A DNA stretch of 64,000 nt from a virus (IMGVR_UViG_3300042997_002652:1-64000); one strand, 5' to 3'. Shown: positions 2,746-62,373, counted from the first letter of the stretch. Program-made: numbers and translations. Notes: a model not told the origin generated them from the sequence alone.

Positions 2746-3591
2746 TTACATCACAAAGATTTTACCAACAGAACTAGATAGTACATCATCAAACATGTAC
2801 TCCATGTCTCTACCTAATATTTCTGCTGCTTCTCTAGCGTCTTCGTTGTTTTTATATTCAGGTTTCATGTTTAAGTATTGTGAAGGATTGCCCCATACTT
2901 TTCTGCCATAACCTAGATTACCAGGTAATGGTTTAAAAGTTACTTTACCGGTGCCTAAGTATTGAGCAAATATTTCATATAAGAATTCATACGGTCTTTT
3001 TATTTCATTGTTTCTACTACTACGCTGAGTACCGATAGCATTGAACAGAGCATTGTATTCTGGAGTTAAGTCTGATTTCATAGAACCAGATCCACCGTAT
3101 GCTCTGCCTTTATTATAGTATTCATACAGCATAGAGTTAACTTGATTAAAGAAATGTTTTTCTGCTTCTTTCCAAGTACTCCATCCTGTATTTTTACGAA
3201 CACCCGCTTGAATAGCATGACCAAATCTGTGAGCCATGATCCATGGGGTCATTGGCACTTTAGCATCACCTGCATTTCCTACGAAAACTACAGTGATAGC
3301 ATCTTCACTACCTGCGATTATTTTTTGTGCTTGCTCATCGCCAAAGATTTCTTGTAGTTTAGCAGCATCAGCCGGGCCATACTCAGAGTACTTACCAGTA
3401 CCCGATATGTTGCTAAAGAACAGTCTAAAGTCGTAGGGAGTCTTTTCTAAGAATCTTTGTGTCTTTAAGATATTTGTAGGATGAGGCACTAGTTTCTTAT
3501 CAGGTCCTTTGAATGGCCCCGGTTTATTAAAGTCGCCCATGGTGTCATAGCTTTGTAATGGTGCTTCCGTAATAAAATCTGTTGCTCTCAC
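2746..3591 (-). CDS. Hypothetical virion-associated protein with zincin-like HRFGH motif
   Basis: 281-aa ORF; leader MRATDFITE; AHRFGHAI followed by YEFLYEIFAQY. Confidence 0.6.
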   Translation of the reverse strand: MRATDFITEAPLQSYDTMGDFNKPGPFKGPDKKLVPHPTNILKTQRFLEKTPYDFRLFFSNISGTGKYSEYGPADAAKLQEIFGDEQAQKIIAGSEDAITVVFVGNAGDAKVPMTPWIMAHRFGHAIQAGVRKNTGWSTWKEAEKHFFNQVNSMLYEYYNKGRAYGGSGSMKSDLTPEYNALFNAIGTQRSSRNNEIKRPYEFLYEIFAQYLGTGKVTFKPLPGNLGYGRKVWGNPSQYLNMKPEYKNNEDAREAAEILGRDMEYMFDDVLSSSVGKIFVM

Positions 3592-3989
3592 TTTGGATAT
3601 CCTTTAAATCCTTTTACTGGAGATCCTTTATTTGTGTCTAACATTTCGTCACTACCTTGTGAACTTACTGTTTTTATTCCCTTCTTATTAACTTTTTTCA
3701 ATGCTTGTTGAATTACTTGTTTAACATCGGGATCAAAGCTACTTATTATTAAATTAGGTCCCCACTTACTTTGAGCGCGAAACTCTGGAGTTTTATGCGC
3801 ATGTACATTATCATTCCCGCTTTCACCTCGCACTGCTGCTACCGCAAGACCAAAACGATAAATGTCATAAAAATTACTATTGTTTATTTCTGGCATCATA
3901 TAAGTATTTGGTAACGATAACGCTGCTACATCTAGCGCATCATGTACATCTGATAACTGTTGTTCTGTTAAAAACTCTTTAGCTCTCAT
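3588..3989 (-). CDS. Hypothetical protein with MRAKEFLTE leader
   Basis: 133-aa ORF, overlapping start/stop with neighbours. Confidence 0.7.
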   Translation of the reverse strand: MRAKEFLTEQQLSDVHDALDVAALSLPNTYMMPEINNSNFYDIYRFGLAVAAVRGESGNDNVHAHKTPEFRAQSKWGPNLIISSFDPDVKQVIQQALKKVNKKGIKTVSSQGSDEMLDTNKGSPVKGFKGYPK

Positions 3990-4162
3990 CTTTTCTTTAC
4001 TCTTCCTCTAAACCCTTGAGGGAAACTGTCAGTATTTACCGGTCTATTAAACCATTCTGGTGATCCAATCTTATAACTTAGTTGTTCTGTAGTTGATTGT
4101 TCTTTAGTTTCTTTTATACCAGCTATTCTTTTCCACTGTGCTAGTTCTTGATCATGTGTCAT
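3986..4162 (-). CDS. Small hypothetical protein (58 aa), not in ORF track
   Basis: MTHDQELAQWKRIAGIKE...PQGFRGRVKKR; fills the gap exactly, with 4-nt ATGA overlaps on both sides. Confidence 0.65.
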   Translation of the reverse strand: MTHDQELAQWKRIAGIKETKEQSTTEQLSYKIGSPEWFNRPVNTDSFPQGFRGRVKKR

Positions 4163-4713
4163 AAACTCTTACCCCACCTGGTAGATATCACATTCCAGTT
4201 GATAATCTTCCACTGTTCGTTTAAGTACTTTTCTTTGTCAGTTCCATAGTCCAACAAAAATGCATGTTCCCACCAGTCAATGAGTAACAATATATCATCT
4301 CTGACTTCATGATTCTTGATTGTTTTAATCTTGCCGTCGTAGGCCAAGTAAGCCCAACCTGATCCCTGTATAGTCATAGCTTCTTTCAAAAACTCATCTT
4401 TAAAGTTTTCATAACTTTTAAAGTGTTTGTTTATAAAACTTAACACAGGACCATTAGGTTTATTGTTGTTTCTTACTTCACGATACTGAGTGAATAACGT
4501 GTTATGTAAAAATGCTCCTGCGAAATTAAACTCAGGATCTCCTTCACCAGCATTATATCGCGTAGCATAAGCGTGGGCAAGTTTGCCATAGTGTAGTTCT
4601 ATGGTATCTTTACTCATAACGGGACTAACTTCACTATCAGTAAAGTTGCGTTTGATTATCTCAATGTCTTGAGGTTTTGACTTTTGTTCTAATAAATTTA
4701 TAATATCGCGCAT
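4159..4713 (-). CDS. sod: Fe/Mn superoxide dismutase
   Basis: Metal ligands in ELHYGK, FLHNTLF, DWWEHA; GSGWAYL motif. Confidence 0.9.
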   Translation of the reverse strand: MRDIINLLEQKSKPQDIEIIKRNFTDSEVSPVMSKDTIELHYGKLAHAYATRYNAGEGDPEFNFAGAFLHNTLFTQYREVRNNNKPNGPVLSFINKHFKSYENFKDEFLKEAMTIQGSGWAYLAYDGKIKTIKNHEVRDDILLLIDWWEHAFLLDYGTDKEKYLNEQWKIINWNVISTRWGKSL

Positions 4714-4745
4714 AATCTAGTATTTATGATTGTGCGAGAATTAAG

Positions 4746-4964
4746 TTACTTTCGTCTAGTGATTCTTCCACGATTCAAATCATAGGGTGAGCATTCTATT
4801 TCAACTTTGTCACCCATCAAAATTCTTATTTGATTCTGACGCATCTTGCCAGATATGTGTGCGAGAATAGTATGTCCTATTTCAGTCTTGACTTTAAACA
4901 TAGCATTTGGCATAACATCTACTATGTCTCCTTCTAGCTTTACTGTATTGTCTTCTTTGGCCAT
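4746..4964 (-). CDS. infA: Translation initiation factor IF-1
   Basis: 72 aa; PNAMFKV...[35 protein letters not shown] is the IF-1 signature. Confidence 0.95.
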
Positions 4965-4984
4965 ATAAGTGGTTTTTATTGCTC

Positions 4985-5395
4985 CTATTTTTTAATTGTG
5001 TTCCAAATCTTTTCTTTCTCTAAGATATCTTTTTCAAGTTCTCTATACTGTTCGCCTAGTGCTTTTAACTGTTCCCAACGTTCTTCTAAGTCTTTATTAG
5101 GGTGTAAAATAGCTAATCGTTTTTCAATATTATCTATTGCGTCTGCTAAACTTTTACCTTTTATTTTTAGATCACCCTCAATTTCAGCATCACCTTTAAC
5201 ATGTAATGGATTATTACTTGTAATAGTAGTATCCCAACTTGTGTTAATACCATTCCACATTAGTGTTTGCCCTGCCGCACTTAGTGTTTGCCCTGCCGTA
5301 CCGGTGTTGATAGTATAAGGAGACAGCGTGGTACCTGTAGTGTAAATTCCCTGAGCACTGATAGATTCAAGTGATGTAATAGTTTGTTGACTCAT
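4985..5395 (-). CDS. Hypothetical protein, C-terminal coiled coil
   Basis: 136-aa ORF with GGAG RBS. Confidence 0.7.
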
Positions 5396-5583
5396 TTATA
5401 TACCTTTTTAATAAAAATGCGGCCATCTTCTCCTACGCCTATGTCTAGTTCATCACCCTCTTTCCATCCCATTTGTTTTAGTAAATGAGGCGGAATAGGA
5501 AGAATTAAATCTCCTGAGCCGTCGTCGGCTTCGTGAGTAATAGTTTCATAACGTAAATTGTCTTTACCGGGTTGATTGGCCAT
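5392..5583 (-). CDS. AbrB/MazE/SpoVT-like DNA-binding protein
   Basis: LILPIPPHLLKQMGWKEGDELDI swapped-hairpin pattern; TTGACT-17-TATAAT upstream (5590-5618). Confidence 0.7.
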   Translation of the reverse strand: MANQPGKDNLRYETITHEADDGSGDLILPIPPHLLKQMGWKEGDELDIGVGEDGRIFIKKVYK

Positions 5584-5633
5584 GTTGTTATTATATTTAC
5601 TTTAGAATGATAAGTCAATAATAAAAGGTAACA

Positions 5634-6113
5634 TCACCAAGCCCTGCAACTCCAATAACGTGCTTTCCAGCGAGGCCCGGGATTATCACAGTTATGTCTA
5701 GCTCTGAATGATTTTCTACGAGCAGGATTAGACTTTTTTATACGCATGTTTTTATCGCCAAAGTTTACTTTAACTACTTTGCCGTTTGGCTTACGGACAT
5801 AGACCTTCGATTTGGCTACATCTCCAGCCATTGGCTTGCCAAGAGGAACTTTTCTGCCTTGATATTCTGCTTCATCTAAATCTTCAGACTCTAACAACAC
5901 ACCATTAAAGTCTAAAAACTCAAGCATAGATTCATCAGCTTCAACGATAATACCATCTTCAGTAAACCCGACTACGCCAGTTTCAATCACAAAGCTTTCT
6001 GAAAGCTCAATATCAAAACTGTCGTATAAGCTTATTTTAGTATCATCCTCGACACTTAGCTCGTTTATCTTTTTAAAGATATCTCTTATTACATCATTGC
6101 CATCATTGCTCAT
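5634..6113 (-). CDS. Hypothetical protein: acidic N-terminal part plus basic Cys/Trp C-terminal domain
   Basis: LDE|AEYQGRKV...RKSFRARHNCDNPGPRWKARYWSCRAW. Confidence 0.7.
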   Translation of the reverse strand: MSNDGNDVIRDIFKKINELSVEDDTKISLYDSFDIELSESFVIETGVVGFTEDGIIVEADESMLEFLDFNGVLLESEDLDEAEYQGRKVPLGKPMAGDVAKSKVYVRKPNGKVVKVNFGDKNMRIKKSNPARRKSFRARHNCDNPGPRWKARYWSCRAW

Positions 6114-6684
6114 TGTTGTTATCCTTGTTGAAAAAGATTTTTTCTAATCTTTTTATAGTTCTTTCCGCAGCATCAGGTGTTTCATATTCATCTTCATGCT
6201 TAATACCAATACCGCCAGCTTGTTGCCATGCATTAATCTTTTTACCATAATCATCAATCAAGATGTTTGGTCTGCCGCCGTCTAGTGCGTGTTCGTGCTT
6301 GTCATGTTTAAAGATAGCACCTTTAACAGCGTTTGGCGTATACTTTTGTAACCATGCTTGCTTACCCATTATACTAGATTTTGCGTATGGGCCTCTTAGA
6401 GGCGCACTTAAAATAGTATAAGAAATGTTATTACTATTTAGCCAATCTGTGATTTTTTTACCACCTGGTAATTGTTTAAGCTCAGCAAAGAATTCGTAAA
6501 CTGCTTTAGGAGAACTATGTGCTAAACGCTCAATTTCATCTTCAGTTTTTTGTTTAGCTTCTTTATGTGACACTCCAATAGCATCTTGTATTCCACCAGC
6601 AAAATCCACCTGTACACCATCCATGTCAAGAAATACATGCGGCATCTTTTGTGTAGTATTTTCAAACAATTCTTTAATTTTCAT
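6103..6684 (-). CDS. HAD-family 5'(3')-deoxyribonucleotidase
   Basis: FLDMDGV motif I, ILSAP, ILIDD motif; leader MKIKELFE. Confidence 0.85.
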   Translation of the reverse strand: MKIKELFENTTQKMPHVFLDMDGVQVDFAGGIQDAIGVSHKEAKQKTEDEIERLAHSSPKAVYEFFAELKQLPGGKKITDWLNSNNISYTILSAPLRGPYAKSSIMGKQAWLQKYTPNAVKGAIFKHDKHEHALDGGRPNILIDDYGKKINAWQQAGGIGIKHEDEYETPDAAERTIKRLEKIFFNKDNNNEQ

Positions 6685-6692
6685 ATTATTAT

Positions 6693-6929
6693 TTATTCGT
6701 GAACAAGGATAAAGGCAAGATAGTCTTTTTCAGATTCAAAAGAAAAGACATAATCTAAGTTGTATTTGTTAGTTTTATCAAGAATGGCTTTTGTCCAATT
6801 ATAGCTACTAAGACTTGTATCATCATGATAGGACCATTTTTCTTTGCAATTGCGGTAACACCAGTCTAAGACTGATTGAAGTTTTCCAAAAGGAATAGAT
6901 AGTTTAGATTTATAAGTCAGGTTCAGCGT
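6693..6929 (-). CDS. Probable ~78-aa hypothetical protein lacking a canonical start (ACG/ATA/CTG candidates)
   Basis: Open frame ...YKSKLSIPFGKLQSVLDWCYRNCKEKWSY...FSFESEKDYLAFILVHE fills the otherwise empty 6685-6909 gap. Confidence 0.5.
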   Translation of the reverse strand, partial: TLNLTYKSKLSIPFGKLQSVLDWCYRNCKEKWSYHDDTSLSSYNWTKAILDKTNKYNLDYVFSFESEKDYLAFILVHE

Positions 6930-7434
6930 ACTTATGGACCTTAACTCCAGTTTTCTTTAAGAATTCAATACCGTCATTTGAACGATAATCGTGCTTGTAG
7001 TATACATCACTGATACCGGTATTGTAAATGCTTTTAGCACACTCTAAGCAAGGCGAGTGGGTAACGAACAGTGTAGCACCCAGTGTGCTTTCGTTGCTTG
7101 CTGCAACCTTGTCAAGGGCGTTTCTTTCGGCATGCATTGTCTCTGGTTTGGATTTAAGCTTATATCTCATTTCTCTGCCCGCATCAGGTCTGTATTCCTT
7201 GAATGGCCATTCTTCTTCAATATCTTCTGCGTCCAACCACATACCAGCATCAGATTCTAACCATTGTTTTTCCTCACATACATTTTCCCAACCAGAAGGC
7301 ATACCGTTAAAACCCGATGCTAGTATCTGATTACCCTTAACGATAACTGCACCAACATTCAAACGAACAGCATAGCTAAGCTTAGCAGTAAGTTCAGCTA
7401 TTTCCATATAATACTTTACAAACTTTGGTTTCAT
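6910..7434 (-). CDS. dCMP deaminase (Zn-dependent deaminase)
   Basis: HAERNAL and SPCLECAK zinc motifs; GFNGMPSG; probable start MKPKF at 7434. Confidence 0.9.
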   Translation of the reverse strand: MKPKFVKYYMEIAELTAKLSYAVRLNVGAVIVKGNQILASGFNGMPSGWENVCEEKQWLESDAGMWLDAEDIEEEWPFKEYRPDAGREMRYKLKSKPETMHAERNALDKVAASNESTLGATLFVTHSPCLECAKSIYNTGISDVYYKHDYRSNDGIEFLKKTGVKVHKYAEPDL

Positions 7435-7442
7435 AGTATTAT

Positions 7443-18484: not shown

Positions 18485-19183
18485 CTAAAGTGTATTGTCG
18501 TAATCATCAGCACCAGCAAAATCCCAAGAAGAATCTTTAAATTCTTGAATAGCTTCTATTGTACCCTCTACAGGATTAAATCCATAAGTCCAATACTTGA
18601 TTAATCTTTTAGGCGCTTGTTTAGTAATATGATTAAATCTAAGTGAATGACTATTAATATCCTTAACAGTCATTTCACCTAAAATCCATTCGTTACCAGT
18701 TGTAGCTACTTGACATACACTAATGTCAAAGTGATCAATAACTTCTTTAATAGTGTCAAAATACTTACAAGTAATTATTTGTACTTTCCAATTTTTATTA
18801 TTTGCATTTATATTAAACGTACATGCGTTATCCGTTTTTATAACTACATGCGAATGACCATGGCTATAGTCCGACAATCCAATATGTTTAATATAGTCTA
18901 TTAGCTTTTCTGCTTGTTTTTCATTTTTACAAAAAACATCTATGTCGCTGTGTTCACCAACTGGAATATTTTGAAACCAACGTAAACAAGCTCCACCTGC
19001 AATCCAAGGGCCTTTATCTATATCAGGGTTAATAACATTGACGGGCAATTGATCATCAGGATGAACTGTTTGATATTTACATAGTGAACCCAGTTCTTTT
19101 TTCGCTCGTTTTGGCTCACTAAAGATTGAATCTTCTTGGTTCCACGGGATTGCGATTACATTAGACCATATGCTCATTTTCAT
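18485..19183 (-). CDS. Nucleotidyltransferase of the CCA/poly(A) polymerase head type
   Basis: WIAGGACLR...SDIDVF and FDISVCQ motifs. Confidence 0.7.
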   Translation of the reverse strand: MKMSIWSNVIAIPWNQEDSIFSEPKRAKKELGSLCKYQTVHPDDQLPVNVINPDIDKGPWIAGGACLRWFQNIPVGEHSDIDVFCKNEKQAEKLIDYIKHIGLSDYSHGHSHVVIKTDNACTFNINANNKNWKVQIITCKYFDTIKEVIDHFDISVCQVATTGNEWILGEMTVKDINSHSLRFNHITKQAPKRLIKYWTYGFNPVEGTIEAIQEFKDSSWDFAGADDYDNTL

Positions 19184-19770
19184 TACCTCTTAGTAACTAC
19201 TTCGTCTGCTAGTCCATATTCAACAGCTTCGGCAGCAGACATAAAAAAGTCTCGCTCCATGTCCTTAGCTAATTCTTCAAACGTTTTATTTTTACTGTTA
19301 TGCTTGACATAGATTTCAGTAAGAGACTTCTTCATTGCCAAGATTTCTTTTACTTGAATTTCCATATCAGTTGCTTGACCACGAGCACCTCCGGAGGGCT
19401 GATGAACCATATGACGAGCATTGGGCAGAATTTTACGTTTACCAGGAGAACCAGCTTGTGCTAAAAGTGATCCCATTGAACAGGATTGTCCCATTACAAT
19501 AGTGTTCACATCTGGTTTGATAAACTGAATTGTATCGTAAATAGCCATGCCTGCAGTAACAGAGCCGCCGGGAGAATTTATATAAAGAAAGATGTCTTTG
19601 TCCGGATCTTCTGATTCCAGAAACAAAAGCTGGGCTACAATCAAGTTAGCCATTTGATCATGAACTTCACCTTCAAGTAGTATTACCCGATCTTTTAACA
19701 AACGTGAATAAATGTCGTAACTACGTTCACCGCGTGAAGTTTGTTCAATTACAATGGGAATCAATGCCAT
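19183..19770 (-). CDS. clpP: ATP-dependent Clp protease proteolytic subunit
   Basis: [14 protein letters not shown]; YINSPGGSV; catalytic Ser (SMGS), His (MVHQP), Asp (RDFFM). Confidence 0.97.
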
Positions 19771-19845: not shown

Positions 19846-21381
19846 TTACTTGCGTTTGGCTCTACCCACATCACCTGTTTTTGTCTTGTCTTTTTCAGGT
19901 CTAGTAGCTCTGCCAGTTGCGATTTGTTTTGCTGCCTTATCTAGTTTTACTTCGGGTTTCTTGCCTGCAGCACTTGCAGTTTCTTCACTATCTTCTTTTG
20001 GAACTCCCGCTCCTTTGTCTATCTTAAAGGTAAAGTTTCCTTTTATGCCTGTACTGTAATAAGTTTTACCAGCAGAAAGATAAACACCTTTAATAGAATC
20101 TCCTGGATACACAGTGTTGAATTCTTGTAGAGTCCAAGTATCTTTACCTTCTTTGGCTTTAGTATAAACTTGAACTAATGCGCCGTTGTTTAAGATATCA
20201 GATGCAGCTTTTGGAAAGTCAGTATTATCGTTAACTTTATCTGCTGCTTTGTGTGCTACTTCTGCTAATAAATGAAAATATAAACTAGTGTTTTCAGGAG
20301 TTTTAGTTCCTCTGTTCAACGCCATTTTCTTTAATCGTGATGATATGTCCACACTGTCTATATCGTTTAAGTTTATAGGAGCCATATTTTTTAAGTCTTC
20401 TATTTGACTAGCTTCTTTGGCATTGATAATACCAAATTTTACTCCTAACATCAAAGGGGCACCTGATTGTCCTTCTCTTTTAATATCTTCTAATAAACCA
20501 ATAGTTTCTTGATGCTTTCTTATTAATCTACTACCTGCTGGAGTTTGTTTCATTTCTTCAACACTATCTAACAAGTTTTTAACACTTGCTTTAGCCCCAG
20601 CCCCGCCTTTAGTACTTATTTTTATAATCTTACCTTGAGGATTGGTTAGAATGCTATCACTAAGTCCAGCAGTTTTACTAGTATCAAACGTGATAAGAGT
20701 ATCAGCAAATGATCCATCCATGAACACTTCGGCAGCTTCACCTGCGTTACCTGTATAGTTTCCAGTTTGTAGTGCCATTGGTTGTAAAATCTCGCAGAAG
20801 TAATCTCTAAACGCACTAAAGCTTACATCACTAGGAGCAGTAAAATGCAATGGTAGTTTTTCACCATTAGCTATTCTTCGTGCCACTGTATATAGAGGAT
20901 TGTCTGTACCTAAACTAGTAGCTAGTTGATTTATGATATCGTCTGAAGTTAAATCAATCTTGTCAGATAATAAATCTTGTGGTGATAAACCTGCTTGTGC
21001 TTTAGCAGCAGCTTTACCTGCAAAAGAGTAATCTCCTATTTTGTTAGGGAAAAAATTACTAGTTAAGTTTGGTTTTATCTGCTCAAAATATTTACCAAAA
21101 TATAATTCACCTTGATCTGAAGAAAAAGATGCAATAGCAAATCCGCCAGATTTCGCTGAAGGTGAGTTCGTCCACTGAACTTCAATACCATCCGTAACTT
21201 GATTTACTGTTTGCTCAAGTTCTTCTTTGGTTAGTTTTCCGCCACCTTCAGGAAAAAACTGTATACTATTGAATACTATTTGGTCATTTTCTGAATTGCG
21301 GAAAACGTCTCCGGGCTTTCTACCCGCTAGACCAGTTGATTCGGTTAATAATTCTAATGTGTTTAATAAGTTTCTAATCAT
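19846..21381 (-). CDS. Hypothetical 511-aa protein, possible PD-(D/E)xK-like nuclease fold, with LLTE leader
   Basis: GLSDSILTNPQGKIIKISTKGG; TAAATA upstream. Confidence 0.55.
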   Translation of the reverse strand: MIRNLLNTLELLTESTGLAGRKPGDVFRNSENDQIVFNSIQFFPEGGGKLTKEELEQTVNQVTDGIEVQWTNSPSAKSGGFAIASFSSDQGELYFGKYFEQIKPNLTSNFFPNKIGDYSFAGKAAAKAQAGLSPQDLLSDKIDLTSDDIINQLATSLGTDNPLYTVARRIANGEKLPLHFTAPSDVSFSAFRDYFCEILQPMALQTGNYTGNAGEAAEVFMDGSFADTLITFDTSKTAGLSDSILTNPQGKIIKISTKGGAGAKASVKNLLDSVEEMKQTPAGSRLIRKHQETIGLLEDIKREGQSGAPLMLGVKFGIINAKEASQIEDLKNMAPINLNDIDSVDISSRLKKMALNRGTKTPENTSLYFHLLAEVAHKAADKVNDNTDFPKAASDILNNGALVQVYTKAKEGKDTWTLQEFNTVYPGDSIKGVYLSAGKTYYSTGIKGNFTFKIDKGAGVPKEDSEETASAAGKKPEVKLDKAAKQIATGRATRPEKDKTKTGDVGRAKRK

Positions 21382-21393
21382 AATGTATTTATC

Positions 21394-23124: not shown

Positions 23125-23430
23125 TTACTGTTCGCTTTCTACTTTGATCTGAAGTGGAAATCCCTGTGATCTAGCATCAAGAGTTACTTCAATGCCGCGC
23201 TGCTCAGCAATTTCATAAGGTAGCACTGCTACTACTGCACTTCCAATCTCATGAATTTTTTGAGTTATGGTAGACGCAGTATCTGGATTGTAATTAAAAT
23301 ACTCAATAAGTGAAGATATAACAAATTCCATAGATGTTACATTATCATTCATATAAATAATTTTAAACAAAGGCGGTTCTTTTAAACTAGTGTTGGGTTT
23401 GATTTTACTGTTTATTTCTGCATTTGGCAT
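23125..23430 (-). CDS. clpS: Clp protease adaptor ClpS
   Basis: PPLFKIIYMNDNVTSMEFV...IHEIGSAVVAVLPYEIAE...FPL. Confidence 0.93.
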   Translation of the reverse strand: MPNAEINSKIKPNTSLKEPPLFKIIYMNDNVTSMEFVISSLIEYFNYNPDTASTITQKIHEIGSAVVAVLPYEIAEQRGIEVTLDARSQGFPLQIKVESEQ

Positions 23431-24045: not shown

Positions 24046-25257
24046 TTAGGGAAAATAAAGTTCTTTTGGATCTAAGACCATGTCTTGTGTAATTACTAAA
24101 TCCTTAATACCATTTGTTACATAGTGCGATATATGAAACATATGCGGTAATAACACTTTTTCTATTTCACTGTGTAATCCCCTCGCTCCAGTTTTAAGAA
24201 TGATACAATTTTCTGCAAGTTGATCTATTGCTTCTGTAGTAAATCTTAAATCTATACCGTCTAATGAAAAAATATACTTATACTGTTCTATGAAACTGTT
24301 CTTGAGTTGTGTTAGTATTCTTATCAACTCAGGTTTATCTAATTGTTCTAATGTTACAGTAGTTGTAAATCTACCTATAAATTCTGGTATCATTCCAAAC
24401 TTAATTAAGTCTTCGGGAGTAACCAAACTTTGGTCAATAATATTATCTTTTGATTTTACTTCAGCACCAAATCCAATTGATGACCCTTGTACTCTACTTC
24501 TTAGTATATCACTCAAACCACTAAAAGCTCCGCCGGCAATGAACAAAATATTTTTTGTATCTACTTCTATTGTATCACTGTTTGGATTCTTTCTTTTACC
24601 TGAAGCACTTACGCGACATTTCGTGCCTTCTACAAGTTTGAGCAATGCTTGTTGTACACCTTCACCAGAAACGTCACGAGTAATACTAGTGCTTTCTCCT
24701 TTTCTAGCTATCTTGTCTATTTCATCAATAAACACTATTCCTCTTTCAGCAATAGAAACATCTCCGTCAGCTATTGCCAATAACATTGATATCATACTTT
24801 CTACGTCATCACCTACATAACCTGCTTCAGTTAAGCTAGTAGCATCAGCAACCACGAAAGGCACATTAAGATACTTAGCAACTGATTTAGCAAGTAATGT
24901 TTTACCGCTGCCAGTTGGACCTATCATTAATACATTACTTTTTGCTATTTCAATATCTTCAGGAGGTTCGTTATTGATTCTTTTATAATGGTTTGTTATT
25001 GCAACACTAATTGCGATTTTTGCTCGGTCTTGCCCTATAACATGATTATCTAAATGCTTTTTTATACTGTAAGCATCTGCTTTTTTTGCTTTACTTTCTA
25101 TTATAGTTGGATTGTTTTCTTCTACTATAAGTTGGTTACATAACTCAATACAGTCGCTACATATAGCAACGTTATCACTTACTATCAATTTGGTAACTAA
25201 ATCTTTATGATTATTACAAAACGAACAATAAGACAATTTATTTTCTGACATGAACAC
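24046..25257 (-). CDS. clpX: ATP-dependent Clp protease ATP-binding subunit ClpX
   Basis: CSFC...CSDC zinc domain; GPTGSGKT; EAGYVGDDVE; FIDEIDKI; RDVSGEGVQQALLK; TGARGL. Confidence 0.97.
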   Translation of the reverse strand: MFMSENKLSYCSFCNNHKDLVTKLIVSDNVAICSDCIELCNQLIVEENNPTIIESKAKKADAYSIKKHLDNHVIGQDRAKIAISVAITNHYKRINNEPPEDIEIAKSNVLMIGPTGSGKTLLAKSVAKYLNVPFVVADATSLTEAGYVGDDVESMISMLLAIADGDVSIAERGIVFIDEIDKIARKGESTSITRDVSGEGVQQALLKLVEGTKCRVSASGKRKNPNSDTIEVDTKNILFIAGGAFSGLSDILRSRVQGSSIGFGAEVKSKDNIIDQSLVTPEDLIKFGMIPEFIGRFTTTVTLEQLDKPELIRILTQLKNSFIEQYKYIFSLDGIDLRFTTEAIDQLAENCIILKTGARGLHSEIEKVLLPHMFHISHYVTNGIKDLVITQDMVLDPKELYFP

Positions 25258-41259: not shown

Positions 41260-42528
41260 TCAATGCTTTAAGAGTAGGGTACTTAGTACGCCCTGAGAGT
41301 TTGCTGTTAGATCGGGTTCACCGGGAGCAATGATAACATTCCATATATTGTTTATAGAATCTTTACCCTTTTTCTCCCATTCATCATAGCTAAGAATAGT
41401 ATTTTTATTTAAACCGTATTTAATTGCTAGTCTGTCTTTAAGAGTATCTAATGTTCCTGGCTGAAGTTGCCATTGTCCACTTGGTCCCTTTTCCAACTTT
41501 CCGTCTTTCTTGAGCAACAAATCTTTGAATAATTCGTCGGGAACAATTCTAGAGTTCTTTGTTTTTTCTAAGTTAGGATCAGTTGCTTTAACTTGTCTTT
41601 CTTGTTGTTTACTAGCACCCTCACTCCAGTTTATCATAAAGTTGTCTGGTTTCTTTCCTAATGCTGCTCCAGCGATTTTAGTGTAAGCATAGAAATTAAC
41701 ATCAGGTATAGATTGAGCCATTTTAAATGCCAAATCCATATACTGCGGACTAAAGAAATCCCCAGCATCGTGCCATCTAATAGTAACACGATATCCGTTT
41801 TTATCTCCTAAACGTTTTTCTTTTTCAATTTCGGTTTTCAATTGATTAAAGAACCCGTCTGGATCATTTAACAAATATGTTAATATTCTACCATCGCTTA
41901 TCCATGCGTTCTTGAACTGAATCTTTCCGCCTTTCATAGCAAAACAATCAACTTTACATGATCCAGCACCCGGACATGTATTTACGATAATCAATTTATT
42001 ATCTGATTCATCAACTGCGATACCAGTTAACGCAGCAAAACCAACGTTAAAGAACTGTTCTAGTTCTCCGCTGGAGTGTTTCATTTTTTCGTTTTCTTTT
42101 AACAGTTCTTTTGGTCTTTGAGACAACACATCAATAACTTTCTTTTCGTCATATCTGTTACCCGCCGCATCGTAATATTCTATTACGCTAGATCGGTGCA
42201 TGTATGGTAATTTATATCTATCTGTCTTTTCTTTACCCGATACATACTTTTCAATACCTTTCTTATCTACTTTAGGATTACCTTGTTTATCTAAGTCAGG
42301 TGTTCCTATGATTCTTTTCATATAATCTTGAAATTCTTGATCACCAAATTCTCTAGAAGGAGCCGAGAGTTTCGTAGCTTCGTCTACAACTTCATCTTCC
42401 GAAATCTCGTCATCACTTAGTTCAGCTTGTACGAATTCTTCTGGTGACATTATCTCTACGCCAGCAGTTGACCCCGGAAGCGACTCTGCCGCTTCATTAA
42501 TAATATCTAAAAGTTTTCTAAAATCCAT
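41260..42528 (-). CDS. Gp88-like protein with three-Cys cluster
   Basis: TCPGAGSCKVDCFA; RWHDAGDF; FYAYTK; leader MDFRKLLDIINE. Confidence 0.65.
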   Translation of the reverse strand: MDFRKLLDIINEAAESLPGSTAGVEIMSPEEFVQAELSDDEISEDEVVDEATKLSAPSREFGDQEFQDYMKRIIGTPDLDKQGNPKVDKKGIEKYVSGKEKTDRYKLPYMHRSSVIEYYDAAGNRYDEKKVIDVLSQRPKELLKENEKMKHSSGELEQFFNVGFAALTGIAVDESDNKLIIVNTCPGAGSCKVDCFAMKGGKIQFKNAWISDGRILTYLLNDPDGFFNQLKTEIEKEKRLGDKNGYRVTIRWHDAGDFFSPQYMDLAFKMAQSIPDVNFYAYTKIAGAALGKKPDNFMINWSEGASKQQERQVKATDPNLEKTKNSRIVPDELFKDLLLKKDGKLEKGPSGQWQLQPGTLDTLKDRLAIKYGLNKNTILSYDEWEKKGKDSINNIWNVIIAPGEPDLTANSQGVLSTLLLKH

Positions 42529-42550: not shown

Positions 42551-43393
42551 CTATTTATCTAAAGTAAGCAGTTGTTCAACAGTATACAACTCTACCATAT
42601 ACGGTGAAACATTTTCTAATACACTTGATGGTAAGTCCCCTTTCCTCCTAGAACCTTCTTTAACTTTAAAGTCACAGTTGTTTACTTGTTTAAATATATC
42701 AACCATTTCTCTTACAGTGTGACCGATCCCGTGCCCTAAGCTTTCTACTTTGTTACTAGGAGTTTCAATAGCTAACTTTAATGCAGTACATATTTCCATA
42801 ACATGTACATAATCTCTAACCGCTGTACCGTCCCATGATTCTCTATAGTCAGTACCAAAGATAGTAAACTCATCAGTGTCTCGTGCTTTCATTAAATTAT
42901 ACATTAAGCCGTCAGGATTAGTTGGCTTGATACCATAATGACTACCGATCACATTATAAAATCTAAAAATAGTATAATCCATTGGCTTGTGTACAGTACA
43001 CATTTCTCTTACACAATCTTCTGCTGCCCGTTTACTAATACCATATGCTGATTCACACCCAACCGCTGCTCCAGTAGATGCAAATATAAAGTTGTTAGTT
43101 GGTATTTTATTCATTACATTTGTTGTACCATTTAGGTTAGTAAAATAGTACAGCATAGGCATTTGTTCACTTTCCCCTACATTAACTAATGCTGCTAAGT
43201 GAATAACAGCGTCATATGGTTCAGTTTGATCTGGGATAGTAAACAGTCTAGTAATGTCTACTTGATAAAACTTTTTGATAGGTACTTGAGGTTCTTTAAC
43301 ATCTAAACCATGTATTTCATATTCGTTTTCTAATAGTTTGCAAAGATGTGAACCAATATACCCTGAGCAACCTGTAATTAAAATCTTTTTCAT
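42551..43393 (-). CDS. galE: NAD-dependent nucleotide-sugar epimerase/dehydratase (GalE-like)
   Basis: ITGCSGYIGSH; HLAA; YGISK; RDYVHV. Confidence 0.85.
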   Translation of the reverse strand: MKKILITGCSGYIGSHLCKLLENEYEIHGLDVKEPQVPIKKFYQVDITRLFTIPDQTEPYDAVIHLAALVNVGESEQMPMLYYFTNLNGTTNVMNKIPTNNFIFASTGAAVGCESAYGISKRAAEDCVREMCTVHKPMDYTIFRFYNVIGSHYGIKPTNPDGLMYNLMKARDTDEFTIFGTDYRESWDGTAVRDYVHVMEICTALKLAIETPSNKVESLGHGIGHTVREMVDIFKQVNNCDFKVKEGSRRKGDLPSSVLENVSPYMVELYTVEQLLTLDK

Positions 43394-57106: not shown

Positions 57107-57631
57107 TTATTCAAAGATATGTGGGTTGGCAGCACCGTATATTTTTATTAGTTTGCCAGCCATCATGTCAGCCATTGCTTCTATCGGTGATCCCGGATAA
57201 CTTGAATCGGGTTTAATCATATCTAGGTCGTGTTGTTTTACATGTACTAGTTCGTGGAAGGTAGTTCTTAAAATATCTACTAAGTTTCTGTTTTTAGCAT
57301 AAATCCAAATCTTACCTGATCCAGGTACGTGTCCACCAGTATGATGATTGCCTTGCGCTTCATCAGTATCCATGCTTAGTTCAATTGCGGGTATTTTTGT
57401 GATGTTAAGTTTTTTACAAATCCATTCTACTGCTTTAGCTACTTCAGCAGCTTTGTTATCATCAATTTCTTCATCCAAGCTTTGTATTGCTTTTTTAGCT
57501 ATATTTCTTTCTTTTTTAGCATTTTTTACAAGTTTATCTAGAACACTGTATCTATGTTTATCTAAGGTAGGCAAACCGTATGCTGGATTTTCTTGAACTG
57601 TATTTTCTATAATAAACTCTTTTGCTCTCAT
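57107..57631 (-). CDS. Zincin-like metallopeptidase with MRAKEFIIE leader
   Basis: TFHELVHVKQ and IEAMAD. Confidence 0.7.
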   Translation of the reverse strand: MRAKEFIIENTVQENPAYGLPTLDKHRYSVLDKLVKNAKKERNIAKKAIQSLDEEIDDNKAAEVAKAVEWICKKLNITKIPAIELSMDTDEAQGNHHTGGHVPGSGKIWIYAKNRNLVDILRTTFHELVHVKQHDLDMIKPDSSYPGSPIEAMADMMAGKLIKIYGAANPHIFE

Positions 57632-57646
57632 AATAACTCAGTATTT

Positions 57647-57728
57647 GGTGCTACACTTTGACTTATGGGGTAGCGAATCCTTCAGTCGCGTAGTAGCTCA
57701 CGCACATAACCCCAACGGTCCCTGGGTA
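57647..57728 (-). ncRNA. Candidate structured RNA (pseudoknot-capable), family unknown
   Basis: GC-rich island in AT-rich intergenic DNA; UGGGGU/ACCCCA, GCGUG/UACGC, loop GCUAC complementary to downstream GUAGC. Confidence 0.35.
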
Positions 57729-57731
57729 TGT

Positions 57732-57920
57732 TCACTTCATTTCTTTAATCGTACCAATAACAGCATCAGTAATGCCATATTGTTGTTTCATTAATTGCCT
57801 AGCCATAAACAAGTTTTGCGCAGTTACAGTAACATCCATATTACCAGTATAACCCGGTTGCTTTACAAACACCCGGGCAATGTACATTTTATATGGTTGT
57901 ACAACGTCTGCTACTTTCAT
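57732..57920 (-). CDS. Hypothetical protein
   Basis: 62-aa ORF. Confidence 0.65.
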   Translation of the reverse strand: MKVADVVQPYKMYIARVFVKQPGYTGNMDVTVTAQNLFMARQLMKQQYGITDAVIGTIKEMK

Positions 57921-58471
57921 TAATTATAATAAGTGGGGCCGCCACTTTTGCTAGGTGCCATATTATCATAAGGTGATTTTGGTCTTGCTTGTCCCTTAAA
58001 GAACTTAACAATTTTATCAAAACCTTCTTTGTTTTGGCCACCAACATTTTGCATAGTTTCTTTATTTGCCGGCATAACTGTTTCATACTTGCGCAAAAAC
58101 AAGTTAATATCTTCTACCGGTAATTTAGCTTTAGAGCCATCTTTAAAACTAATAGCATAGTTTCCATCAACGTCAAGTGCTGACCGTAGTTGCATAACCA
58201 AGTGCTTTACTTTGTCTTGATCGGCATCAGCAACCGGTTCGTCTTCATCCCAATCGTCAATTTCTCTGTTTTTTGCTTCGTTAGTAGGAGTGTGCGTAAC
58301 ATCAGCTAAGTAAACAGCAATACCAGCAGTAGACTTCAAGCCCCACTTTTCAGCAGCTTTTTTAGCAGCGCCATAGCTTGAACTAGCAGTACATTCATAC
58401 GTACCTTTTTTAACATGAACACACACGTAAGGGCGTTCTGCGTTTTCTAATAAAACTTCTTGGATTTTCAT
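57920..58471 (-). CDS. Hypothetical protein with MKIQEVLLE leader
   Basis: 183-aa ORF; internal TNE site separates two segments. Confidence 0.7.
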   Translation of the reverse strand: MKIQEVLLENAERPYVCVHVKKGTYECTASSSYGAAKKAAEKWGLKSTAGIAVYLADVTHTPTNEAKNREIDDWDEDEPVADADQDKVKHLVMQLRSALDVDGNYAISFKDGSKAKLPVEDINLFLRKYETVMPANKETMQNVGGQNKEGFDKIVKFFKGQARPKSPYDNMAPSKSGGPTYYN

Positions 58472-58497
58472 ATTAAGTTCCTTTATTAATTTAGTAT

Positions 58498-58941
58498 TTA
58501 TGCTCTATCTGTTTTTAATGTGCTGTTTAACTGCCAAGACCATTTTTCATGTGCATCTAGTCTTTCAGCTAAAAAGTTCATAATACCTTGTTTGTTCTCT
58601 TGCTCTGCGGATTTGAAGCAAGTATTCAAAAGATCAATAAGTTTTAAATTGTCTTGATAAATTTCAGCTATCATTAATTGGGCACGGGGTATCTTTAGCT
58701 GATCTTCTATTATACACAGTTCTGCCATTCGTGTAAAGCTTCCGGGAGCGTAACTGCCCAAAGTTCTTACATATTCTGCTGTTTGGTCAATGGCATTGTC
58801 AAACACATCTTCATAGATTTTCCCAAAAAACTTGTGATATTGGGGAAAGTCTGGTCCCTCTACATTCCAATGAAAATTTTGGGCTTTTATAGCAAAGCCA
58901 TAACAACTTGCTAATAATACTTTTAAATCATCTGATAACAT
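58498..58941 (-). CDS. dps: Dps/ferritin-like DNA protection protein
   Basis: NFHWNVEGPDFPQYHKFFGKIYED; DQTAEYVRTLG; HEKWSWQL. Confidence 0.9.
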   Translation of the reverse strand: MLSDDLKVLLASCYGFAIKAQNFHWNVEGPDFPQYHKFFGKIYEDVFDNAIDQTAEYVRTLGSYAPGSFTRMAELCIIEDQLKIPRAQLMIAEIYQDNLKLIDLLNTCFKSAEQENKQGIMNFLAERLDAHEKWSWQLNSTLKTDRA

Positions 58942-58943
58942 TT

Positions 58944-59333
58944 TTATTCCTCAATATCGTCTAAGTTTATAAACTTAATAGGTTGTTTACTTTTTACTGC
59001 TGCTAACGCTCTGTGATTACCATCAATAATTCTACCGTCAGCAATAACGATTATTTGATTTGCAAGATTTTGTTTAGCATATGTTTTGACTAACTTCTGT
59101 TGATAGCTGTCCATGATATCATATAACTCATCTACGTGTTCTATTCTGTACTGTCCTTTTAGTAATATTTCTAATTTATAAGGTTGCATAGTTTGAATTT
59201 CATGTTGAGTATTCAATTCACTATTAGTAACATATTCCCAAAAAGCTTCGTCACGATCGGGGAAATCATTTTGATAAACTTGATTTAAAGAAGTAGTATC
59301 TTCTTTAAGAGTTATGAATTCGCGGGCTCTCAT
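58944..59333 (-). CDS. ParB/Srx-like domain protein with MRAREFIT leader
   Basis: IVIADGRIIDGNHRALAA. Confidence 0.7.
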   Translation of the reverse strand: MRAREFITLKEDTTSLNQVYQNDFPDRDEAFWEYVTNSELNTQHEIQTMQPYKLEILLKGQYRIEHVDELYDIMDSYQQKLVKTYAKQNLANQIIVIADGRIIDGNHRALAAVKSKQPIKFINLDDIEE

Positions 59334-59833
59334 TTCTTATCTCTAGTACTCTTAGTAGGCACGTTCTTTGCCTTACCTTGTCTTTCAGGATTTGGATCTT
59401 GTCTACGCTTTCTGCTAGCAGCACTTGCTCTACCTTTTTTACCTAAAGACTGTGCTTTCTTTTGCGGTAAGCATTTTGGCTTACCTTCACCTTCACTGCC
59501 CCTAGCACATGAGCCTCTGATTTTACCGTCAGGACCAAATCTAACCCACTTTTCTTTAAACCATTTACGCAAGTCTTCTTCTAGTTGTTCTTCGCTAGTT
59601 TCATCTATACTTTCTTTTGGCACACAGTTAGGAACCATTTTGCCACTTTTCTTTTTCATACCCACTTGTTTGTATGTATCCCAACATGCTTCATCAAGCT
59701 GGTCAACTTCTTCATCAGTCTTTTTTCTGCCCTGACAATGTGCTTTTTGGCTAAAGCCTTTTGGATTACTACAGTTGATAGAGCGTTTATATTTCTCGCT
59801 CCAAGCTTCTGTTATAAACTCACCAGCTCTCAT
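59330..59833 (-). CDS. Basic multi-module virion protein with MRAGEFITE leader
   Basis: Three Cys-containing basic modules separated by acidic LDE/LEE linkers. Confidence 0.7.
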   Translation of the reverse strand: MRAGEFITEAWSEKYKRSINCSNPKGFSQKAHCQGRKKTDEEVDQLDEACWDTYKQVGMKKKSGKMVPNCVPKESIDETSEEQLEEDLRKWFKEKWVRFGPDGKIRGSCARGSEGEGKPKCLPQKKAQSLGKKGRASAASRKRRQDPNPERQGKAKNVPTKSTRDKK

Positions 59834-62373
59834 TTGCTTTTATTACCCCAATTACTAGCGCCAACTTTGCGGCACTTTACTAACGCACCTGAAGCATACG
59901 CACTTGGCCAAACTTTGTAGCGCGATTTTACTTTATGATAGCAAGCATCTTTATTGCCTTCTTCGTTTAGTTCGCTTTCTGCTACTAGCTTACCGCCGCA
60001 TTCGGGGCACTTATCAGTATTTTCTGTAACTAATGTTGCTTTGTAGTTTTTATTAGGTAAACGAATAAGTTGATATGAATTTCCTTTTAAATCTTTTCGT
60101 TGCATCATTTTTGGGCCGTGACTTGCCGCATCATACGCAACTTCTGCACCAAAATGTTTTTGTAGTGATGCTGAATCGTGTTCTTGATCAGTATTTTCTG
60201 TTACACTTTCGTTTTTAGGTTCCCAGTATCTTCCTTTACCCAACATATTATCTTGATAACCATACCACTTACCTGATTTACTTTGTTTTAATCCTGCACG
60301 ACTAGCATCAGTTTCTTTTCCTGCTGGTACATTGTAAAAAAACATACCTTTAGGTTTGTTATAAGTTTTGCGTGTTTCGTGACCTAACTCATGTTCCATT
60401 TCTCTACGCTTGAAGTCGCGTTTGCTCATTGAACCCCAATCATCATTCTGTTCGTTCTGAATACCTCGCATGATAGAACTTTCAAAACTAGGAACGATTG
60501 GTTTGTCGTCTGCGCCCATTACTTCGCCTTTACCTAATGACAAACGAGTTTTATGATTTTCTATTCTTCTTTCTAGTTCTTTAATTTTAGCTTGATCATT
60601 TTGCTGTGCAGCCATTTGATGATACTTGATAAGTGTTTGTAGTTGAGGACTATTGCTATACACTTGTTGTGCTTGCTGCTGTCCTATTCCCCAAAGAGAA
60701 GCTAACAGTGCTGTACCTGCTAATACTTTTCCTATTACTCCTTCGGACATTTCTCTGTCCATCATGGTTAATGTATCATAGTCAATATAAAAGTCTGTGT
60801 CTGGGTCATATGCCAAACCAGCTTTTGGATCGTAGTAATATACTTTACCGTTTCTTGCTCTGAATGGCCCTTCTAAGCCTTGTCTTTCTTGATATTTTTC
60901 ACGATCAATGTTTGGTAGTATACGGTAGCCTTCCGCCATATCTTGATCAACAGATTCTATTTTTAATCTCTTACTGATATAATCATGTTGTGCTAATAGT
61001 CCACTCCATCTTTCTCTAGAGCTAAAACTTTCATCTTTATCTTGGCGCAACTTATTTATTTCTCTTTTAGTCTGTTCAAGTTGTTGTTGAAGTTTTATTC
61101 TTTCTTCTGGAGATGGTGGTGTTGCTTTAAATGCAGGTTTTACAGGTTGTTTTTCCCCTGGCTGTCTAATTTTTGCGTTCATGCCCATTGATTTTGCCAT
61201 ACTAGCAAAATCATCTGCTAATCCTTCCCCTACGCCGCCGCCAGCAATAACTCCGCCGGTCATTTCATCAAAACGGCGCTGATATGAATTAGCACTTGTA
61301 GAATATCTAGAACCTATTGTTTTCATACCTTCGCCGGCTAACAATAAATCATACATTAGTTTTATAACTTGCATGGGCGAAAACAAACTATCAATTCTAT
61401 TATAAAAGTAATCTATTTTTTCAGGTTTCATTCTACGATCAGGGAAACCTTTTATTAATTCTCTTGCTCTAGCTTTAATAGTTTCTAAATCTTTTATTTT
61501 TTCTAATTGTTTAATATCGTCTATACTAAAGTTATCTCTTTTGCCTTCAATGGTGTCTTCACTTAGTTGTTTATGTTCTAAATACTCACGAACAGTGTTT
61601 AAGTAATCATTTGCTTTGATAATCTTTTCTTGAACCCAACCTTCAATACCCACTTCTTCGGGAATGTCTTTGATCAGTTCATATATCTTTTTAGCATTCT
61701 TATTAGATTGAAACAAGTCACTCTTTGCCATTTCAACTTCGTGATCAGTACGGTCTTTTGCTTTTGGAATAAATCCAGGCTTGATACGATTTCCTTGACC
61801 AGGAACAATGATAATGTCTTCTTCATCAAGTTTGGCTTCTGATAAGTCTTGGTTCCAGTCTTTTGTCCATTTTGCGACTTTATTAGCATCACCCATATGA
61901 TATCCATATTCTATACCAAACACATAATTTCCTGCATATACGACCCATCCATCGTACTCAGGGTCTTTACCTTGAACCATAGCGTAATCATCTGTATCAA
62001 TGCCTTGTAAACCAACTAAGGATTTAATCCATTTTTTACCTAGTTGTTGTATTTGGAAAGGTCCTTGCCATCCTCGACTTTTTAAGATTTCAACTAGCTT
62101 TTCACTACCAAAGTTTTTACGTGTATATGGTGAGTCAGGTATTGTTAACCTGTTACTAGCTTCTGAAACATCTTGCTCTTGAGATTCTTTAACTGATTTA
62201 CTGTTAGCAAACTTTTCATTAGTCTTTTTGCCAGTTAATAAGTTGCCGCCTTTTTCGTTAGGATAAATTCCTTTACCGCGTGTTTGTGTTTTGCCTACAG
62301 GTGTAGCAACAGTAGCTATAGCCCCTGAAGTAGTTGATTCTGTGAATTGTTTGCTGTTCATAATGAAATCCAT
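59830..62373 (-). CDS. 847-aa mosaic protein, probable head-processed polyprotein
   Basis: About ten segments punctuated by (V/L/M)xE sites; leader MNSKQFTE. Confidence 0.7.
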   Translation of the reverse strand: MDFIMNSKQFTESTTSGAIATVATPVGKTQTRGKGIYPNEKGGNLLTGKKTNEKFANSKSVKESQEQDVSEASNRLTIPDSPYTRKNFGSEKLVEILKSRGWQGPFQIQQLGKKWIKSLVGLQGIDTDDYAMVQGKDPEYDGWVVYAGNYVFGIEYGYHMGDANKVAKWTKDWNQDLSEAKLDEEDIIIVPGQGNRIKPGFIPKAKDRTDHEVEMAKSDLFQSNKNAKKIYELIKDIPEEVGIEGWVQEKIIKANDYLNTVREYLEHKQLSEDTIEGKRDNFSIDDIKQLEKIKDLETIKARARELIKGFPDRRMKPEKIDYFYNRIDSLFSPMQVIKLMYDLLLAGEGMKTIGSRYSTSANSYQRRFDEMTGGVIAGGGVGEGLADDFASMAKSMGMNAKIRQPGEKQPVKPAFKATPPSPEERIKLQQQLEQTKREINKLRQDKDESFSSRERWSGLLAQHDYISKRLKIESVDQDMAEGYRILPNIDREKYQERQGLEGPFRARNGKVYYYDPKAGLAYDPDTDFYIDYDTLTMMDREMSEGVIGKVLAGTALLASLWGIGQQQAQQVYSNSPQLQTLIKYHQMAAQQNDQAKIKELERRIENHKTRLSLGKGEVMGADDKPIVPSFESSIMRGIQNEQNDDWGSMSKRDFKRREMEHELGHETRKTYNKPKGMFFYNVPAGKETDASRAGLKQSKSGKWYGYQDNMLGKGRYWEPKNESVTENTDQEHDSASLQKHFGAEVAYDAASHGPKMMQRKDLKGNSYQLIRLPNKNYKATLVTENTDKCPECGGKLVAESELNEEGNKDACYHKVKSRYKVWPSAYASGALVKCRKVGASNWGNKSK

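Follow-up and report, generated by a model that had tools for sequence, protein, structure and literature searches.

Why should proteins of quite different function in one phage genome begin with nearly the same short peptide? The question is raised by the first 64,000 bases (hereafter, the window) of the 266,967-bp IMG/VR virus record IMGVR_UViG_3300042997_002652, which is estimated to be 76% complete and whose genes lie almost throughout on the minus strand. The original prediction for this DNA quoted eleven such leaders and read them as capsid-targeting sequences (CTSs) of the kind known from phage T4. All eleven are present at the starts of minus-strand open reading frames (ORFs), and the shared leader set is confirmed as an observation. 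Over the whole record it comprises eight canonical and about five divergent leaders; the latter belong to a superoxide dismutase (SOD)-like protein, a HAD nucleotidase-like protein, a GP88-like protein and the products of genes 21381 and 62361, genes being named here by the position of their start codon. As argued below, the leaders are probably T4-type propeptides that direct proteins to the capsid and are then removed by proteolysis. For delivery of these proteins into the host, which is argued by analogy with known phages, the balance is close to even or slightly below it.

The canonical leaders within the window, where all leader genes are on the minus strand, are as follows (a slash marks the end of the leader; scores refer to two position-specific scoring matrices, PSSMs, described below). 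MRATDFITE/A opens a 281-aa protein with a GTG start (2746..3591; 19.0 bits with the 9-mer PSSM and 12.8 bits with the Glu-anchored one), and MRAKEFLTE/Q, the top score in both matrices, opens a 133-aa member of a ~125-aa family (3588..3989). Further along are MRAKEFIIE/N on a 174-aa protein with an HExxH motif (57107..57631; 20.4 and 14.6 bits), MKIQEVLLE/N on a 183-aa protein (57920..58471; 13.4 and 12.2 bits), MRAREFITLKE/D on a 129-aa protein with a ParB-nuclease-like motif (58944..59333; 13.9 bits with the 9-mer PSSM) and MRAGEFITE/A on a very basic 167-aa protein (59330..59833; 19.7 and 13.4 bits). Two canonical leaders were found outside the window: MRAKELINE on a 314-aa protein with a predicted ADP-ribosyltransferase (ART) fold (genome 153714-154658, minus strand), and MRAKEFVTE on a paralogue of the 3989 protein (genome 154655-155023). 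The gene pairs at 2746-3989 and at genome 153714-155023 are arranged alike: the first gene encodes a ~125-aa leader protein with (P/G)FKGY(K/P)K at its end, and the GTG or ATG of a second leader gene directly adjoins or overlaps the stop of the first.

A likeness of this kind might arise by chance, by paralogy or by conservation at the nucleotide level, as in a translation-initiation or recombination cassette; taken together, we regard these sources as highly improbable. With regard to chance, a tight regular expression (regex) matched 7 N-termini in the genome against 0.05-0.08 expected. The original prediction had proposed that the full genome be scanned with a leader model, and this was done with PSSMs trained solely on N-termini of database homologues, near-identical sequences being excluded. 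With the ungapped 9-mer PSSM, 8 N-termini score at least 13.4 bits, a level reached by 2 of 75,870 internal 9-mers, and the next N-terminus stands at 1.2 bits. With the PSSM anchored on the terminal Glu, 8 N-termini, that of the HAD protein included, have p <= 5e-4 against 0.16 expected among 320 genes. None of the replication or early-looking genes scores as a canonical leader with either matrix, in agreement with the absence noted earlier. Paralogy is countered by the lack of BLASTP similarity past the leader, so that the claim of unrelated proteins holds for all pairs except 3989 with 155023 and 58471 with 83925.

Conservation at the nucleotide level deserves more attention, since (A/G)TGAGAGC is indeed common to the starts of five genes in the window, as had been reported (3591, with GTG, 3989, 57631, 59333 and 59833), and since several leader genes have no Shine-Dalgarno sequence and begin 4-7 nt after an ATAAATA box; starts of the (A/G)TGAGAGC type also occur at genome positions 154658 and 155023, outside the window. 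However, the Ala codon in the genome's own canonical leaders is GCA, GCT or GCC. The SOD leader is encoded by 48 distinct DNAs that use 5 Arg codons, 3 Ile codons, 5 Leu codons per Leu position and both Glu codons, while its residues are fixed. A nucleotide-level element is ruled out because synonymous codons vary while the residues stay constant; judged by codon choice, selection acts on the leader peptide and not on the DNA.

The divergent leaders are MRDIINLLE/Q on the 184-aa Fe/Mn SOD-like protein (4159..4713), MKIKELFE/N on the 193-aa HAD/NT5C-like nucleotidase (6103..6684), MIRNLLNTLELLTE/S on a 511-aa protein (19846..21381), MDFRKLLDIINE/A on a 422-aa protein of the GP88 family (41260..42528; Pfam GP88, E 4.4e-24) and MNSKQFTE/STTSGAIATVA on an 843-aa multi-module protein (59830..62361, the start being set by homologues in a frame open from 62373). 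Loose regexes of the form M..(L/I/F)xE showed weak enrichment (32 N-termini vs 17-21 expected, and 78 vs 55-63) and were not used for calling members; as the loose form is near chance level, the divergent leaders rest on family evidence. Homologues were retrieved via the protein body, so these family tests carry no bias from the leader pattern.

Within single families, canonical and divergent forms were found to replace each other. The GP88 family (120 database homologues) starts with MRYHEFITE, MKITELYE, MNFKELFE, MRAFEFLIE or MDFRKLLDIINE, and the 62361 family (~120 homologues) with MNSKQF[TL]E, MKINDIYE, MKITDIVTE or MKFNEIINE. A distant full-length homologue of the 21381 protein, in locus L084, starts MRAKEFLIE/S, and the two leaders align. 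All 80 of the SOD homologues retrieved from IMG/VR keep MR[DE][ILF]IxLLE, with MREFITLLE bridging both leader types. Homologues of the HAD protein start MRIQELLE, MRIEELLE or MRAEEF, and the HAD leader itself resembles the MNFKELFE and MKIQELFE of the GP88-like family (p = 5e-4 with the Glu-anchored PSSM); the relatives search with this protein gave one relative. Families with canonical leaders vary in the same manner. In the family of the 154658 protein, nearly all of 120 homologues have the N-terminus M-[RKQ]-[AIV]-x-[ED]-[IFL]-[IL]-x-E (for instance, MRAKELLNE, MKINEILTE, MQIKEIVTE and MKINDIITE), with the leader Glu invariant in an alignment of 88 homologues. In IMG/VR loci, 10 homologues of the 3591 protein start MRAKDFITE, MRANEFITE, MKSTEFIKE and similar, 11 homologues of the 57631 protein start MRAKEFLTE, MKSTEFILE, MNTKDIIIE, MRAREFVVE and similar, and those of the 59333 protein start MRAKEFISE, MRAKEFINE or MRANEFITE. 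Since canonical and divergent forms swap within single protein families, the divergent leaders are, on this family evidence, variants of one signal that are interchangeable on homologous proteins.

What could read such a signal? The major capsid protein of the phage (genome 237013-238209) shares 64-67% identity with its counterparts in Vibrio phage 2.275.O, Pseudomonas phage PA5oct and the 121Q/PBECO4 coliphages, and this places the phage, by its capsid protein, in the RaK2/121Q/PA5oct assemblage of jumbo myoviruses; its head genes are of T4 type. A gp21-type prohead protease is encoded at genome 235145-235798 (Peptidase_S77, PF03420, 96.3 bits, above the cut-off). The portal gene is followed by genes for a 75-aa protein, an acidic 251-aa protein, the protease, a 367-aa scaffold-like protein and the capsid protein, an order that corresponds to 20-67-68-21-22-23 of T4; gp21 and gp23 of T4 align with the phage's own protease and capsid protein. 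Head-core proteins of this phage have leader-like N-termini themselves, MDNKKFEKLIDLIINE/N at the gp68 position and MLDAIKPLLE/S, and MDNKKFEKLIDLIINE closely resembles the MDFRKLLDIINE of the GP88-like cargo. In the capsid protein, QLLAE/SSAG lies directly before the segment homologous to the first residues of mature T4 gp23, where T4 has FLTE/AEIGG. In the scaffold-like, gp68-like and capsid proteins, the (L/I)xE sites are similar in kind to those of the leaders.

The comparison with T4 bears out the likeness proposed in the original prediction. According to the T4 record, the internal proteins (IPs) IPII and IPIII start MKTYQEFIAE, which the core EF(I/L)xE of the leaders matches, and IPI starts MKTFKEFTSTTTPVSTITE (MKTFKEF...); other T4 N-termini are MAKINELLRE (gp24), MLKEQLIAE (gp22) and MNEPQLLIE (gp21). 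In T4, a Glu-to-Asp change in this peptide prevents processing while targeting persists. Within the T4 CTS, residues 4 and 7 matter most for targeting, and residues 8 and 10 for processing (PMC9026906). In both phages a short N-terminal tag ending in (L/I)xE is found on unrelated proteins, with M-[RK]-x-x-E-F-I-x-E as the core here; the E-F-I-x-E core is shared, so that T4 positions 7, 8 and 10 (Phe, Ile and Glu) and the preceding Glu are kept. Both have a gp21-family protease and T4-type core genes, and the tagged genes here are probably of late type as in T4, with variable cargo in accessory regions in both. There are also differences. The tag is one residue shorter here (MRAKEFITE vs MKTYQEFIAE) and has variants of 8 to 14 residues, enzymes of 20-95 kDa are among the cargo, compared with 8-20 kDa for the small basic IPs of T4, and the phage, known here from its genes, belongs to a distant jumbo lineage and not to the T-even phages. 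Taking all this into account, the T4 capsid-targeting reading is supported as the best inference, and at the sequence level its predictions hold throughout.

The N-terminus might instead be a recognition tag for another machine, such as the phage's ClpXP/ClpS system in timed degradation, or a modifying enzyme. ClpP and ClpX are encoded in the window, in a region that includes a ClpS-like adaptor recognised by reading of the sequence only (19183-19770, 23125-23430 and 24046-25257, minus strand; matched to annotated clpP/clpX of other phages), and ClpS adjoins the SOD homologue in PA5oct. Nevertheless, a tag of either kind would not be expected to match the T4 CTS at the very residues defined by T4 genetics, to end in the gp21 cleavage motif, or to recur as the same kind of N-terminus on the head-core proteins. 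The leader presumably also fits poorly with published N-terminal ClpX motifs, which we count against this alternative. With respect to a modifying enzyme, no consistently adjacent one was found, although no systematic search was made. Altogether, recognition by another machine is unlikely, and capsid targeting remains the reading that we follow below.

Packaged proteins would have to be made late in infection. ATAAATA, which matches 7 of the 8 bases of the T4 late promoter TATAAATA, occurs within 50 nt upstream of 41 of the 320 called genes, many of which have N-termini that read as structural (tail-fibre- or baseplate-like). Genome-wide, the box is found ahead of 7 of 15 leader genes, compared with 34 of 305 other genes (Fisher p = 0.001). 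Within the window, where an upstream TAAATA had been pointed out, ATAAATA lies within 50 nt 5' of 6 of the 11 leader genes. These boxes, all on the minus strand, precede the genes for SOD (4721..4727, 7 nt before the start), HAD (6690-6696), 21381 (21386-21392, 4 nt before the ATG), GP88-like (42552-42558) and 58471 (58495-58501), and the leader-gene operon 62361-57107, at whose head a box (62386..62392) follows a strong terminator hairpin (62419-62442). Leader genes without a box of their own are located downstream within the same operons. The genome also encodes a homologue of gp55, the T4 late sigma factor (E 9.5e-7), and many SOD homologues keep ATAAATA 4-7 nt before the ATG. Expression of the leader genes is therefore likely to be late, as far as promoter context can tell.

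The spacing of these boxes is of separate interest. About nine genes lack a Shine-Dalgarno sequence and have ATAAATA just 4-8 nt ahead of the ATG (4713-4727, 6684-6696 and 21381-21392, genome positions 70160, 91728, 215846 and 240468, and others). Many SOD homologues keep the arrangement of ATAAATAC, a gap of 4-6 nt and the ATG. Should the box be a late promoter of the T4 type, the approximately nine genes would give leaderless or nearly leaderless late mRNAs.

The leader is also portable among phages. An exact DNA-pattern scan of IMG/VR matched at least 114 contigs, and all 117 matches listed are ORF starts that read MRAKEF[ILVM]xE. Among these matches, the proteins behind the leaders fall into at least 24 BLAST-unrelated clusters; the ~125-aa family is the commonest MRAKEF cargo (75 of 115 leader ORFs), and the family of the 59833 protein is second (15 ORFs). 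Sequence coding for FKGY stands upstream of many IMG/VR leader genes. Four of five large leader-carrying contigs, including both complete ones, encode a gp21-type protease. Each has 2-4 strict MRAxEF.xE starts, compared to none in the reversed-pattern control.

The cargo proteins themselves were classified with different degrees of certainty. The SOD-like protein matches Sod_Fe_C with E 2.4e-25, while its Sod_Fe_N score of 19.4 bits is below the cut-off of 27. About 15 extra residues are present at its N-terminus, because its residue 20 is paired with residue 5 when it is aligned to a solved FeSOD; bacterial SODs align to it from residue 28-29 on. Of the four metal ligands, we take three to be H41, D146 and H150, which pair with a conserved His, Asp and His, respectively, in the solved FeSOD. 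The other His, H70, is displaced by one residue in this alignment and is conserved across the phage clade. Tagged SOD was found in at least 598 IMG/VR stretches. A Dps/ferritin-like gene without a leader lies inside the leader operon (58498-58941, minus strand; Pfam Ferritin, E 1.4e-16), and its presence alongside the SOD gene may point to a theme of oxidative stress or iron.

For the nucleotidase, the original prediction was supported in its enzymatic part, with an NT5C match of 26.3 bits (cut-off 24.8) and a DMDG motif; its leader is discussed below. For the proteins labelled "zincin" and "ParB-like", both leaders are confirmed, while the labels rest on motifs and weak matches only. The former protein (57631) has HELVH, of the HExxH type, at residue 126 and had no match in Pfam or PHROG, and the latter (59333) has DGNHR at residue 104 and a PHROG ParB-like match with E 5e-4 only. 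The 59833 protein has an isoelectric point (pI) of 9.8 and matches phrog_727 (E 7.5e-23). The 133-aa family has a conserved C-terminal FKGY motif. An AlphaFold2 (AF2) model of the 133-aa protein has pLDDT 71 with the first 11 residues unstructured; Foldseek returned no match to this model with E <= 0.001, and tblastn found no homologue of the family in cultured phages. Leads from the atlas for the 2746-3591 protein as ATLF/zincin (0.91-0.92, with few shared features) and for the 19846-21381 protein as restriction-endonuclease-like (0.87) were too weak to use.

The best-modelled cargo is the 314-aa protein at genome 153714-154658. Its AF2 model (pLDDT 88.8) has an ART fold in residues 7-178 and then a helical C-terminal domain. 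The model superposes on the Tpt1 structure 7yw4 with Z 10.5 (root-mean-square deviation 2.5 A over 111 residues) and on DarT with Z 9.4-10.0, and all top structural matches are ART-superfamily proteins. At least 508 homologues were found, some of them fused to NUDIX or other domains. A parallel exists in T4 Alt, an ADP-ribosyltransferase with a 7-residue propeptide (PMC9026906). Like Alt, an enzyme cargo of the head whose short propeptide is cleaved by gp21 and which is ejected with the DNA, the leader-bearing protein here has a predicted ART fold; unlike Alt, its fold match is to the DarT/Tpt1 branch, the comparison being one of fold only.

In AF2 models of two cargo proteins, residues 1-10 have no confident structure and stand ahead of a well-folded domain; the leader is an add-on to a folded domain. 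The predicted mature proteins have pI values above the genome median of 5.8 in 11 of 13 cases, and values of at least 8.7 in six.

Two of the larger families show further modules behind the leader. In the 58471 protein, the domain directly after the leader is common to a 993-aa protein (71% identity over 42 aa), where it follows RVLNE/S. This 993-aa protein (genome 80944-83925, minus strand; DUF3008) starts MSMKDLLNKMTE, and its second junction, RVLNE/SAERPYVCVH, is placed where the 58471 leader ends; the junction may be an internal prohead-protease site joining modules. In the 843-aa protein and its homologues, the leader is followed by a conserved module of ~100 residues, STTSG(S/A)(V/I)A(T/S)V.. 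(for instance, STTSGSVATVA), that heads proteins of 470-1260 aa with differing C-termini, one of which is named a GNAT acetyltransferase by its source. Possibly it is a further module for packaging, carried by polyvalent cargo proteins. As extra leader genes, 83925 (MSMKDLLNKMTE) and 84556 (MRSFKHYLVE) were left uncertain, the PA5oct homologue of the 84556 protein being a virion protein but starting MKSFRDYYDA, without the Glu; 109174 was not supported.

The mechanism that we propose is the known T4 one. Each protein would be synthesised late with an N-terminal tag of 8-14 residues and the core M-[RKQ]-x-x-[ED]-[FIL]-[IL]-x-E. By this tag the protein would bind the scaffolding core of the assembling prohead and so be enclosed as the shell forms, and the gp21-family prohead protease would cut after the Glu of (L/I/F)-x-E and free the mature protein inside the head. 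The freed proteins would remain with the packaged DNA, and at least some may leave with it at infection. The proposed cargo consists of the small basic ~125-aa family, the Fe/Mn SOD-like, HAD nucleotidase, HExxH, ParB-nuclease-like, GP88-family and ART-fold proteins, the very basic 167-aa protein and two large multi-module proteins, of 843 and 993 aa.

The last step is the least certain. The leader might be a latency propeptide that is kept until head maturation, or the proteins might be transient components of the prohead core, and in either case no delivery into the host would take place. This alternative is compatible with most of the data and puts the main uncertainty on the "injected" part: T4 gp67, gp68, gp22 and gp21, which have (L/I)xE sites like these near their N-termini, are for the most part degraded and expelled. 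However, the folded enzymes here (SOD, HAD and ART fold) contain few internal (L/I)xE sites, 1-4 each. In T4, the first 10 residues of IPIII suffice for encapsidation, and foreign proteins fused to the CTS are packaged and delivered (PMC9026906), so the same 10 residues can target proteins that later reach the host. The phAPEC6 paper also notes bubblegram signals of DNA-embedded proteins in heads of 121Q (PMC7247149). On balance we consider latency or a purely core role improbable, if marginally less so than recognition by another machine.

Proteomic data from PA5oct, for which the comparison covered all but the last 87 kb of the genome, add a hint in favour of packaging. Virion flags from electrospray tandem mass spectrometry (ESI-MS/MS) were assigned to gp150 (MKINDIITE), encoded between the portal and core genes, to gp238 (MKIKDILVE) and to gp261, a SOD homologue that is 42% identical and starts MNDSIKKYISIAE. 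These flags are a hint only, because the list holds non-structural proteins.

Several observations weigh against capsid targeting or against parts of it. The PA5oct virion list includes ribonucleotide reductase, thymidylate synthase, ligase and FtsH, and the loose leader regex is not enriched among its mass-spectrometry-positive proteins (4 of 13 vs a 20% baseline). The SOD of the nearest cultured relative, Vibrio phage 2.275.O (NVP2275O_047, L213:401-934), has no evident leader. A generic (L/I)xE near the N-terminus is frequent by chance. The HAD leader, the weakest member of the set, is poorly conserved, and the closest homologue starts MRINELMNKK, without the final xE; this part of the claim of a nucleotidase with a leader is therefore the less secure one. 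Finally, the cargo could act solely inside the prohead or be degraded there like T4 gp67/gp68. As a separate observation on Vibrio phage 2.275.O, a KTSC-domain protein adjoining its SOD starts MFTIRHFIDVMNE/A, like a GP88-type leader.

Other phages offer partial precedents. The propeptides of the phiKZ-like giant phages phiKZ and SPN3US are reportedly long and varied, with a different short motif, and are not known to include one short portable tag that is recognisable in the sequence. What these phages share with the one studied here is Glu-site propeptide processing by a gp21-related protease, many of their head-internal proteins being cut after Glu and ejected (PMC9026906, PMC10052503). In phage P1, the Dar antirestriction proteins are packaged in the head, and the paper on P1 speaks of a capsid targeting sequence (PMC9024508); accessory proteins are likewise loaded into capsids and delivered with the DNA, but the head-assembly system and the signal are unrelated. 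The T4 literature has already suggested that T4-like phages load varied proteins via the CTS (PMC9026906), and all three T4 internal proteins block restriction systems (PMC12373910).

New here are the presence of a recognisable tag in a jumbo lineage that is distant, abundant and for the most part uncultivated, the use of the tag on sizeable enzymes, and the size of the cargo set. In the searchable literature, the capsid-targeting sequence is treated for T4 and close relatives, for phiKZ/SPN3US-type phages by comparison, and for P1, and is not extended to this clade. Neither the string MRAKEF nor a precedent for a ready-made antioxidant enzyme in a phage head was found there, and the papers on PA5oct, on phAPEC6 and on the comparison of jumbo phages do not discuss such a tag.

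Proteins injected with phage DNA act ahead of any phage gene expression. If the tag marks injected proteins, the delivered cargo could be listed from metagenomes, which would provide a catalogue of candidate anti-defence and host-takeover proteins. In the engineering of cultured relatives, PA5oct among them, the tag could also be of use as a handle for packaging. It is conceivable, though we hold this tentatively and at somewhat under an even chance, that a widespread uncultivated clade of jumbo phages loads a changeable enzyme kit via one sequence-readable address label and delivers it with the DNA. If true, the kit would include superoxide dismutase, nucleotidase, ADP-ribosyltransferase-fold, HExxH and ParB-nuclease-like proteins, and the first-minute "injected proteome" of such phages would be predictable from genome sequence alone.

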